From contig JADDRA010000079.1 of NCBI GenBank assembly GCA_016781105.1, positions 3,659 to 55,198 on the forward strand: a DNA stretch of 51,540 nt, written 5' to 3'. The position numbers were made by a program, and so were the translations under genes. Numbering within the stretch: the first letter of the stretch is position 1; each line of letters begins with the position of its first letter. Below, piece after piece: positions 13,309 to 16,993 of the stretch. The DNA comes from Actinomycetota bacterium. Its GTDB lineage: Bacteria > Actinomycetota > Acidimicrobiia > Acidimicrobiales > CADCSY01. The notes beneath the pieces were generated by a model, which made no database searches, was not told the origin of the DNA, and saw only the letters and a list, made by a program, of their open reading frames with translations.

Positions 13309-13491
13309 ATGGCATGGCCGATGCACCTCAAGCAGCGCCACCGTGACCACGTCGTGCACCGCTGGGAGCGGCCGCCCCAGGTGGAGGAGGGCCAGATTGC
13401 CCTGGTCCACGCCCCTCGGGCCGGCGTCCTCCTCGAGCACCGGGCGGCCGATGCCGACCAGCCCGAGGACGTCGTCGACCAGCCGGTCTGA
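13309..13491 (+). CDS. Small hypothetical protein (60 aa)
   Basis: AGGAGG (13295-13300) 8 nt before ATG; MAWPMHLKQRHRDHVVHRWE...DVVDQPV; GC3-rich codons. Confidence 0.45.
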   Translation: MAWPMHLKQRHRDHVVHRWERPPQVEEGQIALVHAPRAGVLLEHRAADADQPEDVVDQPV

Positions 13492-13603
13492 ACGACCAGC
13501 CCCGCGTCCCGCGCCACCTCCCGAGCCCATGTCGTCGCCCATGGCCGACCTGCTGGTAGGAAAGAGTCGAACGCAGCGTCGAGACGATCCGGGAGGTGAC
13601 GAG

Positions 13604-14374
13604 GTGGCTGATCCGATCCGTCCCTGGCGCCGGCCCCCGCCTCCCCCGCCCGACCCGTCCATCCTGCCCCCCGATCTGGTGGCCCGGGCCCGGGGCCTGC
13701 GCCTCCAGCTGGGCGACAACATGGGCGGGGGATCCGAGCACCGGCGCCGCACCCGCAACGCCTACGACGAGGCCCTGGTCCAGGTGGCCGACCTGCTCGA
13801 GCTCCCCGGCGCCCCCGACCCCGAGCTGGTCATCGGGCGGCGGGTGCTCACCACCCTGGAGCGCTCGCTGCTGGAGAAGGCGGTGGTCGCCCGGGGCGTC
13901 GACCTCGGCATCGCCGAGCGGCCGCGGCTCCGGGCCCTTGGTCCCGGGCCCCAACCCACCGGGCCCCCGGCTGCCGGCCGGACGCCCACCCCCGGACCTC
14001 CTGCCGCCAGTTCCCCTGGGTGGGACGGGCGCCGTCGCACACCCCCGAGCCCGAGCGTCGACCCGGCCCCGCCGGCCCCGCCCCCGCCCGTGCGGAGCCG
14101 CCGCGACAGCCTCCTGGTCGAGGCCCGAGCCATGCGCCGGCGCCTCGACCTCTACGAAGCCGACGACCGGTTGTGGCCGACCAAGGTGCAGGAGTGGTGC
14201 GAGGACCTCGACACCTACGACGGCCTGCTCATCGACCTCGCCGTGGCCACCGGCCTCCCGACCTCGGTGCTGCCCGAGGGTGACCGGCGGCGGCTGCTGG
14301 CCGAGGAGCGGGCCGGCATCGAGGGCGGCCTGGCCCGAGCCGGCCACGAGCTCGATCGCGACCGCGCCCACTGA
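13604..14374 (+). CDS. Hypothetical protein with an internally duplicated helical domain
   Basis: GGGAGG RBS before GTG 13604; two copies of a YDxxL...ERxxxE...G motif separated by a Pro-rich linker. Confidence 0.6.
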   Translation: MADPIRPWRRPPPPPPDPSILPPDLVARARGLRLQLGDNMGGGSEHRRRTRNAYDEALVQVADLLELPGAPDPELVIGRRVLTTLERSLLEKAVVARGVDLGIAERPRLRALGPGPQPTGPPAAGRTPTPGPPAASSPGWDGRRRTPPSPSVDPAPPAPPPPVRSRRDSLLVEARAMRRRLDLYEADDRLWPTKVQEWCEDLDTYDGLLIDLAVATGLPTSVLPEGDRRRLLAEERAGIEGGLARAGHELDRDRAH

Positions 14375-14474
14375 GCTGGGCGTCCTTCACCCTCGAGCCG
14401 GCGGCGTGCGCCGCTCGGGCTCCGGGGTAGGCTCCGGCTCGTCCCGATGTTCCTCCTTCCCTGCGAGGTGTGAG

Positions 14475-14768
14475 ATGGCTGTGGTGACCGGGCTGCGCGA
14501 CGACGACATGGAGACCACGTGGCTCCGGCCCGGAGTGACGGCCATGAGCTCGGACACCCCCCTCGGGACCGACGCCGACGGGACCGACGCTGACAGCGCC
14601 GACGTGGTCGACGGCGACAGCACCGACACCACCGACGGCGACACCGCCGACACGACCGACAGCACCGACACGACCGACAGCACCGACAGCACCGACACGA
14701 CCGACAGCACCGACACGACCGACGTCGACTCGACCGACGTGGTCGACGGCGACACCGCTGGCGCCTGA
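14475..14768 (+). CDS. 97-aa Asp/Thr/Ser-rich repeat peptide, candidate RiPP-like precursor
   Basis: GAGGTG RBS (14465-14470) then ATG; about 32-aa non-repetitive leader (LRDDDMET) followed by a DxT/DxD repeat core; overlaps the JmjC frame. Confidence 0.75.
   Translation: MAVVTGLRDDDMETTWLRPGVTAMSSDTPLGTDADGTDADSADVVDGDSTDTTDGDTADTTDSTDTTDSTDSTDTTDSTDTTDVDSTDVVDGDTAGA
14568..14756 (+). repeat. Coding tandem repeat (about 9-bp unit ACCGACAGC/ACCGACACG)
   Basis: Encodes D-T-T / D-S-T triplets. Confidence 0.85.
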
Positions 14769-16017
14769 GGCCCCCGCCGCAGTCGGCGGCGCGCTGGCCC
14801 GCTGCGTCGGCGACGCCGCCGACTTCCTCGACCGGAGCTGGGCCCGCCGGCCCCACCGCCTCGACCCCCCCGACCCCGGAGCCTTCGCCGACCTGCTGTC
14901 GCTGGCAGCCGTCGACCACGTCCTGTCGACGACCGCCCCGCGCACGCCCTCCTTCCGGCTGGTCGCCGACGGCACCCCCCTGCCCGAACCCTCCTACACC
15001 CGGTCGGGCCAGGTGGGGGGCAAGCCCTACCGGGGGGCAGCCGATGTCGCCCGGCTGTCCCAGGCCTTCGCCGACGGGGCCACCGTCGTGCTCCAGTCGC
15101 TGCACCGCTCGTGGGCGCCGCTGGCCCGCTTCTGCCGTGACCTGGAGCTGACCCTCACCCATCCGGTGCAGGCCAACGCCTACCTCACCCCGGCCGGGGC
15201 CACCGCACTGGCGCCCCACCACGACACCCACGACGTGTTCGTGCTGCAGATCCACGGCCACAAGCACTGGCGTGTGGCCGAGCCGGTGGTGGAGGCGCCC
15301 CTCCCCCGCCACCGCTCCCGCCAGGCCCTGGCCGCCGCCCAGCCGCTGCTGTTCGAGGCCGACCTGACCCCGGGCGACTGCCTGTACCTCCCCCGGGGCT
15401 TCGTCCACGCCGCCACCGCTCAGGACGGCGTCTCCCTGCACGTGACCATCGGGGTCCACGCCGTGACCGCTCACGACGTGCTCGCCGCCGTGGTCGACCG
15501 GGCCGCCGAGCACCCGGCTTTGCGGGTCCCCCTGCCCGTCGGCTTCGCCCGCGACCCCGAGGCGGCGACCCTTGCGGTGCAGGCATGCGTGGCCGAGGTC
15601 GGCCGCTGGCTGTCCTCGCTCGACCCGGTCCCGGTGGCCGAGGGGCTGCGGCGGCGGTTCTGGTCGCAGCGCCAACCCCTCCTGGAGGGCCAGCTCATCC
15701 AGCTCGTCGACCTCGGCCGCCTCGACGACGACTCGGTGGTGATCCGCCGCCCCGGTGCCATCTACGAGCCGGCGTCCCCTGGTGACGGGTACGGTGACGG
15801 GGCCGGGAGCGGGGGCGACGGGGGCCGGCTGCGCCTGCTGCTGGGCGACCGGGAGCTGGTCCTGCCCGCCGAGCTCGGTCCCGCCCTGCACCGGTTGCTC
15901 GACGGCGATCCACGACCGGTGTCAGACCTCGCCGACCTGCTCGACGAGCCGAGCCGCCTGGTCCTGGTGCGCCGGCTGGTGCGCGAGGGCCTGGTGCAGG
16001 TCGTGGCCCATGTCTGA
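14758..16017 (+). CDS. JmjC/cupin Fe(II)-2-oxoglutarate oxygenase of the ROX (RoxA/YcfD, NO66) family
   Basis: NAYLTP, H-x-D in APHHDTHDVFVLQIHGHKHW, PGDCLYLPRGFVH, C-terminal winged-helix-like LVRRLVREG. The frame is open upstream of the called GTG 15013 and encodes ALARCVG..FLDRSWARRP; probable CTG start at 14758. Confidence 0.85.
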   Translation: MAPEAPAAVGGALARCVGDAADFLDRSWARRPHRLDPPDPGAFADLLSLAAVDHVLSTTAPRTPSFRLVADGTPLPEPSYTRSGQVGGKPYRGAADVARLSQAFADGATVVLQSLHRSWAPLARFCRDLELTLTHPVQANAYLTPAGATALAPHHDTHDVFVLQIHGHKHWRVAEPVVEAPLPRHRSRQALAAAQPLLFEADLTPGDCLYLPRGFVHAATAQDGVSLHVTIGVHAVTAHDVLAAVVDRAAEHPALRVPLPVGFARDPEAATLAVQACVAEVGRWLSSLDPVPVAEGLRRRFWSQRQPLLEGQLIQLVDLGRLDDDSVVIRRPGAIYEPASPGDGYGDGAGSGGDGGRLRLLLGDRELVLPAELGPALHRLLDGDPRPVSDLADLLDEPSRLVLVRRLVREGLVQVVAHV

Positions 16018-16993
16018 GGGGGCCGCTCCCCAGGCGACGGTGTCGGTGACCTGTGCCGCGGCCTCCCTGGGCCGCCACGAGGCGTTGGTGGCCAGTGCCT
16101 CCCGGGTGCGGTCGTGGCTGCTGATCGAGCAACCCGGGTCCTGGGGCCGGGACGCCCTGCTCGAGAGCGGCCTCGACCCCGTCCTGGCGTCCGCCCTCCT
16201 GGCTCGGTGCCGGCGGGCGGGAGTGCGCCCCATCCTGATCCGGCGCCCACCCTCGCTGCACTCGGCCGCTCCCGGCGCCCTTGGCCACCGGCGTTGCTAC
16301 CTGGCCCACTCCGGGATTCACCGGAGCTGGTCGGAGGCCCTCGACCTCGACGATCCCGCCTCCCTCCTCGACCTCGACCTCGGCCTGCTGGCGTCGGACC
16401 GGCCACCGGGCCTGGGGGCCGCCGAACCCGGACCGCTGCTGTTGGTCTGCACCAACGGGCGCCACGACCGCTGCTGCTCCGACCTGGGGCGCCCCCTGGT
16501 CCGGGCCCTGGTCGAGGCCGGCTCGCACGACGTGTGGGAGTGCTCCCACATCGGCGGAGACCGCTTCGCCGCCAACCTCGTGTGCCTGCCCGAGGGCGTC
16601 TACTTCGGACGGGTGGCGGCTACCGCCGGCCCAGGGGTGGTCGCCGACTACCGGCGCGGCCAGCTCAGCCTCGAGCACTACCGGGGTCGGTCGTCCCACC
16701 CCTCGCTGGTGCAGGCCGCGGAGCTGTTCGTGCGCCGGGCCAGTGGCCTGCTCGGGCTCGACGCCCTCCTGCCTCGCGCGGTCGAACCGCTCGGCGAGGA
16801 CGAGGCCGAGGTCACCTTCGTCACCGCGGGCGCCCCCGCCTCCTCGCCGCCGGGGTGGCGGGCCCGGGTGGGCCGGCGGCGCTCCCCGTGCCCGGCGGTG
16901 CTCACCTGCCGGTCGGACCGGGCCTCCTGTCCCTGGGAGTACCACCTGGTCGACCTGTCGCCGCTGGCCCTGGCCCCCTCGTCTCCCGCCTGA
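16010..16993 (+). CDS. Sucrase/ferredoxin-like (thioredoxin-like 2Fe-2S, Apd1/Aim32-like) protein
   Basis: WLLIEQPGSWG, LLVCTNGRHDRCC, WECSHIGGDRFAAN, YRGRS; ATG 16010 overlaps the JmjC stop by 8 nt. Confidence 0.85.
   Translation: MSEGAAPQATVSVTCAAASLGRHEALVASASRVRSWLLIEQPGSWGRDALLESGLDPVLASALLARCRRAGVRPILIRRPPSLHSAAPGALGHRRCYLAHSGIHRSWSEALDLDDPASLLDLDLGLLASDRPPGLGAAEPGPLLLVCTNGRHDRCCSDLGRPLVRALVEAGSHDVWECSHIGGDRFAANLVCLPEGVYFGRVAATAGPGVVADYRRGQLSLEHYRGRSSHPSLVQAAELFVRRASGLLGLDALLPRAVEPLGEDEAEVTFVTAGAPASSPPGWRARVGRRRSPCPAVLTCRSDRASCPWEYHLVDLSPLALAPSSPA

Follow-up and report, generated by a model that had tools for sequence, protein, structure and literature searches.

An Aspartate-Repeat Peptide Gene Coupled to a JmjC Hydroxylase Gene in Actinobacteria: A Candidate Peptide-Modifying Unit

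The Peptide Gene and Its Operon

The subject of this analysis is a gene for an acidic peptide, left uncalled by gene callers, and the two genes that follow it in a metagenome-assembled genome of the Acidimicrobiia. The window, by which we mean the whole 51,540-nucleotide (nt) stretch analyzed (contig JADDRA010000079.1, assembly GCA_016781105.1), is roughly 75% GC. Within it, the peptide gene is the first cistron of a three-gene operon in which all cistrons abut or overlap and the peptide stop codon lies within the frame of the hydroxylase gene. Taken together, the peptide, the JmjC-type hydroxylase, and the iron-sulfur-type protein have the appearance of a peptide-modifying system, so far undescribed, in soil actinobacteria. 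The features of the operon are as follows, with the basis of each assignment.

14465..14470, + strand: Shine-Dalgarno-like GAGGTG, 4 nt before the ATG (read from the DNA)
14475..14768, + strand: acidic peptide gene, 97 amino acids (aa), stop included (translation, GC content at third codon positions (GC3), homologues)
14493..14522, + strand: N-terminal motif LRDDDMETTW, residues 7-16, of the pattern L(X)4[I/M] (motif table, 59 peptides)
14571..14753, + strand: Asp-x-x repeat tail, residues 33-93 (Asp spacing; DNA repeats within 14615-14723)
14758..16017, + strand: JmjC_2 (ROX-type, for ribosomal oxygenase) Fe(II)/2-oxoglutarate hydroxylase gene, given from a candidate CTG start (PF08007, E 3.5e-28)
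16010..16993, + strand: Suc_Fer-like gene, thioredoxin-like ferredoxin fold (PF06999 match, start read from the DNA)

A preliminary description of this DNA, made from its letters and open reading frames (ORFs), had placed the peptide at the tail of a spurious 390-aa ORF and credited it with a ribosome-binding site and ATG of its own, a nonrepetitive leader, and a strictly spaced Asp core. Each of these observations was confirmed. The peptide ORF is the 3′ tail of the mechanical 390-aa ORF 13596..14768, whereas the true upstream gene (13343-14374) is read in a different frame from that ORF. Translation runs from ATG 14475-14477 to TGA 14766-14768. Residues 1-32 are nonrepetitive. Residues 33-93 contain 23 Asp, always spaced 2 or 3 apart, and every intervening residue is T, S, V, A, or G. 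No K, R, H, F, W, Y, or C occurs in residues 33-97, as had been claimed for the lack of basic, aromatic, and Cys residues, and the net charge of the peptide is -26. At the DNA level, the repeats detected by Tandem Repeats Finder over 14615-14723 have periods of 9 (12.4 copies), 18 (6.2 copies), and 27 (3.1 copies). The genes of this genome have a GC3 of about 0.9, which served as the yardstick for frame choice. The peptide frame has GC values of 0.61/0.57/0.96 by codon position, while both other frames have a GC3 of 0.58 over the repeat, so the Asp frame is the one that is read. Contigs from two public studies match 14300-14676 and 14694-15100 without indels and both break inside the repeat, so that the repeat count rests on the window assembly and is without independent confirmation.

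The gene is single-copy in its genome. Searches of Pfam and NCBIfam with the peptide gave no family at E ≤ 0.01. The Protein Atlas predicts the peptide to be disordered (predicted local distance difference test, pLDDT, of 0.23) and places its nearest matches in Actinomycetota clusters only, at 0.86-0.88; the structure hits carry no meaning, the model being disordered. Ten database clusters of 59-76 aa match the peptide, and the source name of every one is "hypothetical protein". The suggestion in the preliminary description that such peptides are sometimes labeled BatC was thus not upheld, and membership in a known Ca-binding repeat family likewise found no support, on the same two grounds, the lack of a Pfam or NCBIfam match and the names of the relatives.

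Conservation of the Peptide among Relatives

The JmjC protein was used as the query against samples of 401 Acidimicrobiales genomes and 401 Actinomycetota genomes, and homologues were found in 41 of the former (25 of 215 genera) and 73 of the latter (47 of 249 genera). The DNA upstream of every retrieved match was inspected, which yielded 66 distinct loci with a visible JmjC N-terminus. Excluded from this set were the duplicates L014-L017, the 3′ fragment L011, and L013 and L018, which end before the JmjC gene. Four loci (L024, L035, L058, and L062) come from genomes flagged as unpublished, and no conclusion depends on these four alone. In the first genome search, all nine loci with a visible JmjC-upstream region carried the peptide ORF directly before the JmjC gene. 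Over the whole set, the JmjC_2 gene is directly preceded, on its own strand, by a small ORF encoding the N-terminal motif followed by an Asp-rich tail in 62 of 66 loci. A peptide-alignment search of genome contigs returned six loci, of which four are duplicates and two stop at the contig edge before the JmjC gene. As for the remaining four of the 66, L006 lies at a contig end where the tail alone is visible, and in L069 the leader and the Asp tail fall in different frames through a frameshift within the repeat. L010 has no upstream peptide ORF, and its JmjC N-terminus is split, "AALAR" and "CVGD" being read in different frames; L069 and L010 are possibly decaying copies or assembly errors. The fourth, L040, has an atypical acidic ORF (~1100-1400 in oriented coordinates) with about six repeats of D-[TSA]-D-[VI]-[ST]-x-[TY] and no single N-terminal motif.

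The motif could be tabulated for 59 peptides. Position 0 is D or E and position +1 is I, M, V, or F in all 59, with I itself in 48. Position -4 is L, I, or V in 55, position -2 is D in 55, position +3 is T in 51, and position +5 is W in 27. The leader consensus is L-x-D-[DE]-D-[I/M]-x-T-x-W, which has the L(X)4[I/M] pattern, and the preliminary description's leader therefore does recur upstream of homologous JmjC genes. The tail is the variable part. Tail units include DTTDST, DADGTD, DDGDG, and PTEDDENLDAPGEHSxDTGDE, and whole peptides range from 55 to 124 aa, so that both tail length and repeat type differ among relatives, in line with the variable core length that had been proposed. Pooled, the tails are 35% D, 16% G, 16% T, 13% A, and 2% E. 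The tails of the 59 peptides hold 1151 Asp against 77 Glu, an approximately 15-fold preference, even though GAC and GAG do not differ in GC content.

The GAGGTG of the window recurs at the same position in relatives of the same family (f1), and other relatives have either GGAGG or a TAnnnT box. In L024, L026, L027, L030-L033, and L036, the TAnnnT box stands 6-7 nt before the peptide ATG and there is no Shine-Dalgarno site, which suggests leaderless transcripts that start at the peptide start codon. Given the in-frame GC3 of 0.96, the Shine-Dalgarno site and ATG, the relatives with Shine-Dalgarno or leaderless-type starts, and the recurrence of the leader, we are nearly certain that the acidic ORF is a real, conserved gene.

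The JmjC Hydroxylase

The second gene encodes the only PF08007 protein of its genome. Its sequence matches Protein Data Bank (PDB) entries of MINA53, NO66, and YcfD, and in these alignments the HxD...H ligands coincide; the segments "PHHDTHD" and "VHAAT" align with the metal ligands of MINA53, and H154, D155, and H213 are invariant columns among 30 JmjC homologues. An AlphaFold2 model of the protein has a pLDDT of 89, and Foldseek returned full-length matches to NO66, MINA53, and YcfD (E 2e-24 to 5e-16, template modeling score 0.5-0.69, identity 17-24%). In the model, the protein is built as the ROX enzymes are, from a JmjC domain, a helical dimerization domain, and a C-terminal winged helix that is a putative counterpart of a RiPP recognition element (RRE; RiPP, ribosomally synthesized and posttranslationally modified peptide). 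Family, metal triad, and architecture are all those of a ROX enzyme. The constant pairing with the peptide suggests that the substrate of this hydroxylase is something other than a ribosomal protein.

A database protein of 487 aa, P0048, carries leader, tail, and JmjC region in a single frame. In an AlphaFold2 model of this natural fusion, residues 1-67, which hold the leader and tail, have a pLDDT below 50 and are undocked, with no alignment depth for the leader. MAFFT twice aligned residues 2-12 of the peptide ("ADVITGLSDDDI") to the nearly invariant "FDDVLSLADVD" of the hydroxylase (residues ~39-49, window ~14884-14916), which could be either chance in acidic sequence or real mimicry.

The Third Gene and the Conserved Unit

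The ATG of the Suc_Fer-like gene overlaps the JmjC stop codon at 16010-16017 (ATGTCTGA). Five residues of its product, C15, C147, C155, C156, and H180, are kept without exception in a set of 28 homologues, from which binding of an iron-sulfur cluster may be inferred; no solved structure matches this protein by sequence. A PF06999 gene lies directly downstream of the JmjC gene in at least 47 of 64 loci, a count made from the longest downstream ORF, which is a crude pick; in several of the loci without a match, the contig ends too early or the wrong ORF was taken. The upstream neighbors differ among loci and include GGDEF, luciferase-like, M1 peptidase, and citrate synthase genes as well as others. 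Variable genes upstream and a recurrent PF06999 gene downstream delimit the conserved unit as the peptide, the hydroxylase, and the ferredoxin-fold protein.

The Peptide-Hydroxylase Junction

How translation of the hydroxylase begins in the window is a puzzle of its own. Lying at +1 relative to the peptide frame, the JmjC frame is open from 14548, but it contains no ATG, GTG, or TTG before GTG 15013 even though 14770-15012 is coding in this frame (GC3 0.95) and conserved JmjC protein sequence is found from ~14794 (LARCVGD; "ALARCVGD" onward). The missing start is not an assembly slip, since the public contigs match 14694-15100 without indels. Among the 64 loci that could be scored, 16 have no canonical JmjC start within 25 codons of the conserved R-C motif. 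These start-less loci all belong to the order sample (35 loci); the 29 further loci of the phylum include none. In the other 48, the JmjC gene has an ordinary ATG, GTG, or TTG, often after a spacer of 15-50 nt. The second arrangement among these 48 is an overlap, as in L045-L048 and L050-L057, where the JmjC ATG is made by GAT-G, an Asp codon plus G, in the last peptide repeat. The start-less, overlapping hydroxylase gene is an added oddity specific to the lineage of the window.

Two codons near the end of the peptide gene come into question. In the window's family, ACG 14737-14739 stands where the loci just named have the GAT-G start, and P0013, the nearest database homologue, has ATG there. 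In addition, the peptide gene has an NCT codon three codons ahead of its stop that creates CTG 14758-14760 in the JmjC frame, and a gene starting there overlaps the last 11 nt of the peptide gene. The NCT-G sequence is kept in six of eight loci of the family although its first base, and hence the encoded residue (A, T, or S), varies, and only 3-10% of codons end in T in the ORFs that carry it. CTG 14758 is the best candidate for the JmjC start, and our best guess is coupled re-initiation at a near-cognate codon.

The same data bear on the idea that there is one protein rather than two, with the peptide as an N-terminal extension of the hydroxylase made by programmed frameshifting or readthrough. 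Such an extension would account for the coding stretch that precedes the first canonical start in the window and for the 16 loci that share this feature. It would also fit the in-frame fusion P0048 and the finding that, within family f1, the distance from the peptide stop to the JmjC N-terminus changes only by whole codons. The 16 start-less loci nevertheless show mixed frame relations (+1, -1, and in frame with a stop), which no single recoding event fits and which rule out one programmed frameshift as a general rule. The 48 loci with an ordinary JmjC start argue in the same direction. No slippery site was seen at the peptide stop, and no longer fused form turned up in a peptide-alignment search, though this is weak evidence. 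As for P0048, its junction "SDA|RPDRLLS" is the -1 frame reading of L009 and L021, so that the fusion could have arisen from an L021-type arrangement by one extra base. We consider the one-protein explanation quite improbable.

Overlap and a missing canonical start also make translation of the hydroxylase appear dependent on termination of the peptide, which raises a different possibility, namely that the ORF is regulatory and that what matters is the translation of its 27 GAC codons, for example in sensing Asp-tRNA or in gating the coupled hydroxylase gene. The dominance of Asp codons in every lineage speaks for it. Against it, the N-terminal motif is conserved phylum-wide at the protein level while codons diverge, and the downstream hydroxylase and ferredoxin-fold genes are not genes of an Asp pathway. 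A scan for promoters and terminators gave no sites, with neither a terminator nor an antiterminator detected, and Rfam gave no matches at E ≤ 0.1. Attenuator leader peptides are typically much shorter than 55-124 codons, the range of the ORFs here. The ORF does not fit an attenuator-type leader peptide, given the lack of a terminator-like site, of an Rfam match, and of a cognate amino-acid operon downstream, and a purely regulatory role seems very improbable to us.

A Proposed Function for the Unit

We hold it somewhat probable that the peptide is the dedicated, leader-guided substrate of the hydroxylase in a RiPP-like system. Linkage of the two in 62 of 66 loci supports this proposal, as does the conservation of a short leader before a variable tail. 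The preference of the tails for Asp over Glu, the natural fusion P0048, and the action of other PF08007 enzymes on RiPP precursors also count in its favor. The hydroxylase would bind the N-terminal docking motif of the peptide and would then hydroxylate the peptide repeatedly, most plausibly at the Asp β-carbons of the tail. The ferredoxin-like protein may keep the hydroxylase iron reduced or may act on the product. Because the operon is without a protease or exporter, the product would probably remain in the cell, as a polyanionic peptide that is modified and binds metal, and would not be a secreted natural product. The preliminary description had called the peptide a repeat-core RiPP precursor. 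This interpretation is partly supported: the two-part layout, the conserved N-terminal part, and the adjacency to a JmjC gene of the kind expected between a precursor and its modifying enzyme all stand, whereas the protease or exporter that would complete the picture is absent beside the operon.

Several points weigh against a leader-guided substrate. The absence of a leader protease or exporter beside the window operon, whose neighbors are folate, purine, and tricarboxylic acid cycle genes, is one of them. Another is that the 66 loci are mutually related, so that the counts overstate their independence. ROX enzymes with ribosomal-protein substrates have a winged helix too, so that this domain is on its own no sign of leader binding. 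Protein hydroxylases usually modify the conserved part of their substrates, which here points to the N-terminal motif and not to the tail. The motif repeats of L040 similarly hint that the motif itself could be the unit that the enzyme recognizes or modifies.

A peptide that is never modified could account for some of the same facts. It might act as an accessory, be it a buffer of Fe(II) or Ca(II), a chaperone, or a polyanion-mimicking inhibitor, while the real substrate would be a ribosomal protein as for YcfD, NO66, and MINA53. Such an arrangement fits a hydroxylase that is a full-length ROX look-alike and the sole PF08007 protein of its genome, and an operon that sits amid housekeeping genes. 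The predicted disorder of the peptide agrees with it as well, and the DADGTD/DGD-type tails of many relatives may be likened to the DxDxDG loops of Ca-binding proteins. On the other side, the JmjC gene occurs in only 41 of 401 and 73 of 401 genomes and nearly always with the peptide, which would be odd for a general ribosome modifier. The L(X)4[I/M] docking-type motif and the strict coupling of the peptide as first cistron fit a substrate at least equally well, and no Pfam family of Ca-binding proteins matches the peptide. An unmodified accessory is, in our judgment, unlikely.

If the peptide is indeed the substrate, the unit would be a widespread, unannotated peptide-modification system, its JmjC gene occurring in 73 of 401 Actinomycetota genomes and nearly all examined loci having the peptide. 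It would present a ROX-type enzyme acting on a dedicated small substrate and would offer a bacterial model for substrate recognition by ROX-type JmjC enzymes, in which a role for the winged helix would be suggested. It might also be a ribosomal route to poly-hydroxy-Asp metal ligands. The most specific version of the proposal, which we advance tentatively and think more doubtful than probable, is that the product is an intracellular poly-(β-hydroxy)aspartate peptide and the first of a new class of ribosomal products. The ROX-type JmjC enzyme would grip the L(X)4I leader and work iteratively along the Asp repeat, a thioredoxin-like iron-sulfur protein would serve as reductant, and the product would function in iron or calcium handling. 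In the Acidimicrobiales, the enzyme would moreover be translated only by re-initiation at the noncanonical CTG within the end of the peptide gene, which would tie its production to completed synthesis of the substrate. Were this version true, the product would be a protein-sized analogue of the hydroxy-aspartate ligands of siderophores, found across Actinomycetota.

Relation to Known Systems

The ROX enzymes (human NO66 and MINA53; YcfD/RoxA of E. coli and Rhodothermus) share with the window hydroxylase the PF08007 family, the HxD...H triad, and the three-domain build. They differ in that the window hydroxylase is only 17-24% identical to them and is encoded between an Asp-rich peptide and a ferredoxin-fold protein. 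PDB titles name ribosomal-protein substrates for the ROX enzymes. For the third gene, the thioredoxin-like [2Fe-2S] proteins of the Apd1/Aim32 type are presumably the counterpart, since its product matches PF06999 and keeps the invariant Cys and His residues.

Hydroxylation of peptides by related enzymes has precedent, and leader-guided Fe/2-oxoglutarate peptide hydroxylation as such is already known. Work on phaeornamide (PMC8784127) and biphenomycin (PMC12707348) describes PhaI and BipG, respectively, as PF08007/JmjC-type Fe/2-oxoglutarate enzymes that hydroxylate a RiPP precursor. The likeness lies in the enzyme, which is of JmjC type or belongs to the same Pfam family, and in a ribosomal precursor encoded nearby. 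PhaI and BipG hydroxylate ornithine in multienzyme clusters with proteases and transporters; the window unit, in contrast, has three genes, a tail without Arg or Orn, and no genes for export or cleavage. CzlI also appears as a JmjC-type peptide hydroxylase in PMC11575548, and PMC12710340 mentions PF08007-RRE fusions that have relatives in bacteria in RiPP-like contexts.

A possible parallel in leader recognition is MppG of Moorena producens, an Fe/α-ketoglutarate hydroxylase with a C-terminal RRE that, according to a preprint (bioRxiv 10.64898/2026.10.04.756588), requires an L(X)4L motif in the leader. The corresponding pattern of the present peptides is L(X)4[I/M]. The precursor, MppE, has a long, folded Nif11-type leader and a lanthionine-cyclized core, whereas the peptide here has a short acidic leader and an Asp-repeat tail.

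Repeated cores are known from other RiPPs. In PMC13097080, plesiocin and corallotide are precursors with several repeated motifs, each of which is modified, the corallotide repeats are paired with a 2-oxoglutarate oxygenase, and SmaO is cited as an Asp β-hydroxylase in a graspetide cluster. Plesiocin and corallotide need an ATP-grasp macrocyclase, and the window operon has none alongside. No ATP-grasp ligase flanks the operon, the ATP-grasp domain of the nearby sucC belonging to succinyl-CoA synthetase, and the peptide of the window does not fit a graspetide precursor on this ground. A PGM1-like ATP-grasp gene is adjacent in 12 loci only. In the main text of openly available papers, we found no description of a peptide-JmjC-Suc_Fer module.

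Neighboring Genes and Database Records

The 12 loci just mentioned are L045-L048 and L050-L057, 11 of genus g250 and one of g387. In each, the ORF immediately before the peptide gene, in the same orientation, encodes a PGM1-like ATP-grasp ligase (PF24923, PF18105, pre-ATP-grasp; e.g., L045:1-1161), and an extra peptide-ligating or cross-linking step is possible in these loci. In the window, the operon is flanked by MTHFR and an unknown ORF on one side and by folD, purH, and purN on the other, with sucC also among the neighbors. The upstream ORF at 13343-14374 (+ strand) encodes 343 aa with the C-terminal sequence "RLWPTKVQEWCEDLDTYDGLLIDLA..." and has no Pfam or NCBIfam match. It is kept upstream of the peptide in family f1, whereas the module of other families does not include it.

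Database records show how the junction is handled by automated annotation, which leaves the peptide gene uncalled. The window's own record, P0014, holds a truncated JmjC protein that starts at 15013. In P0056, P0066, P0068, P0083, P0086, P0111, and others, the opposite has happened, and the JmjC ORF has been called too far upstream, across the Asp repeats in their Pro/Thr-rich shadow frame ("MTPPTPRKTSTAPTTPTAS...").

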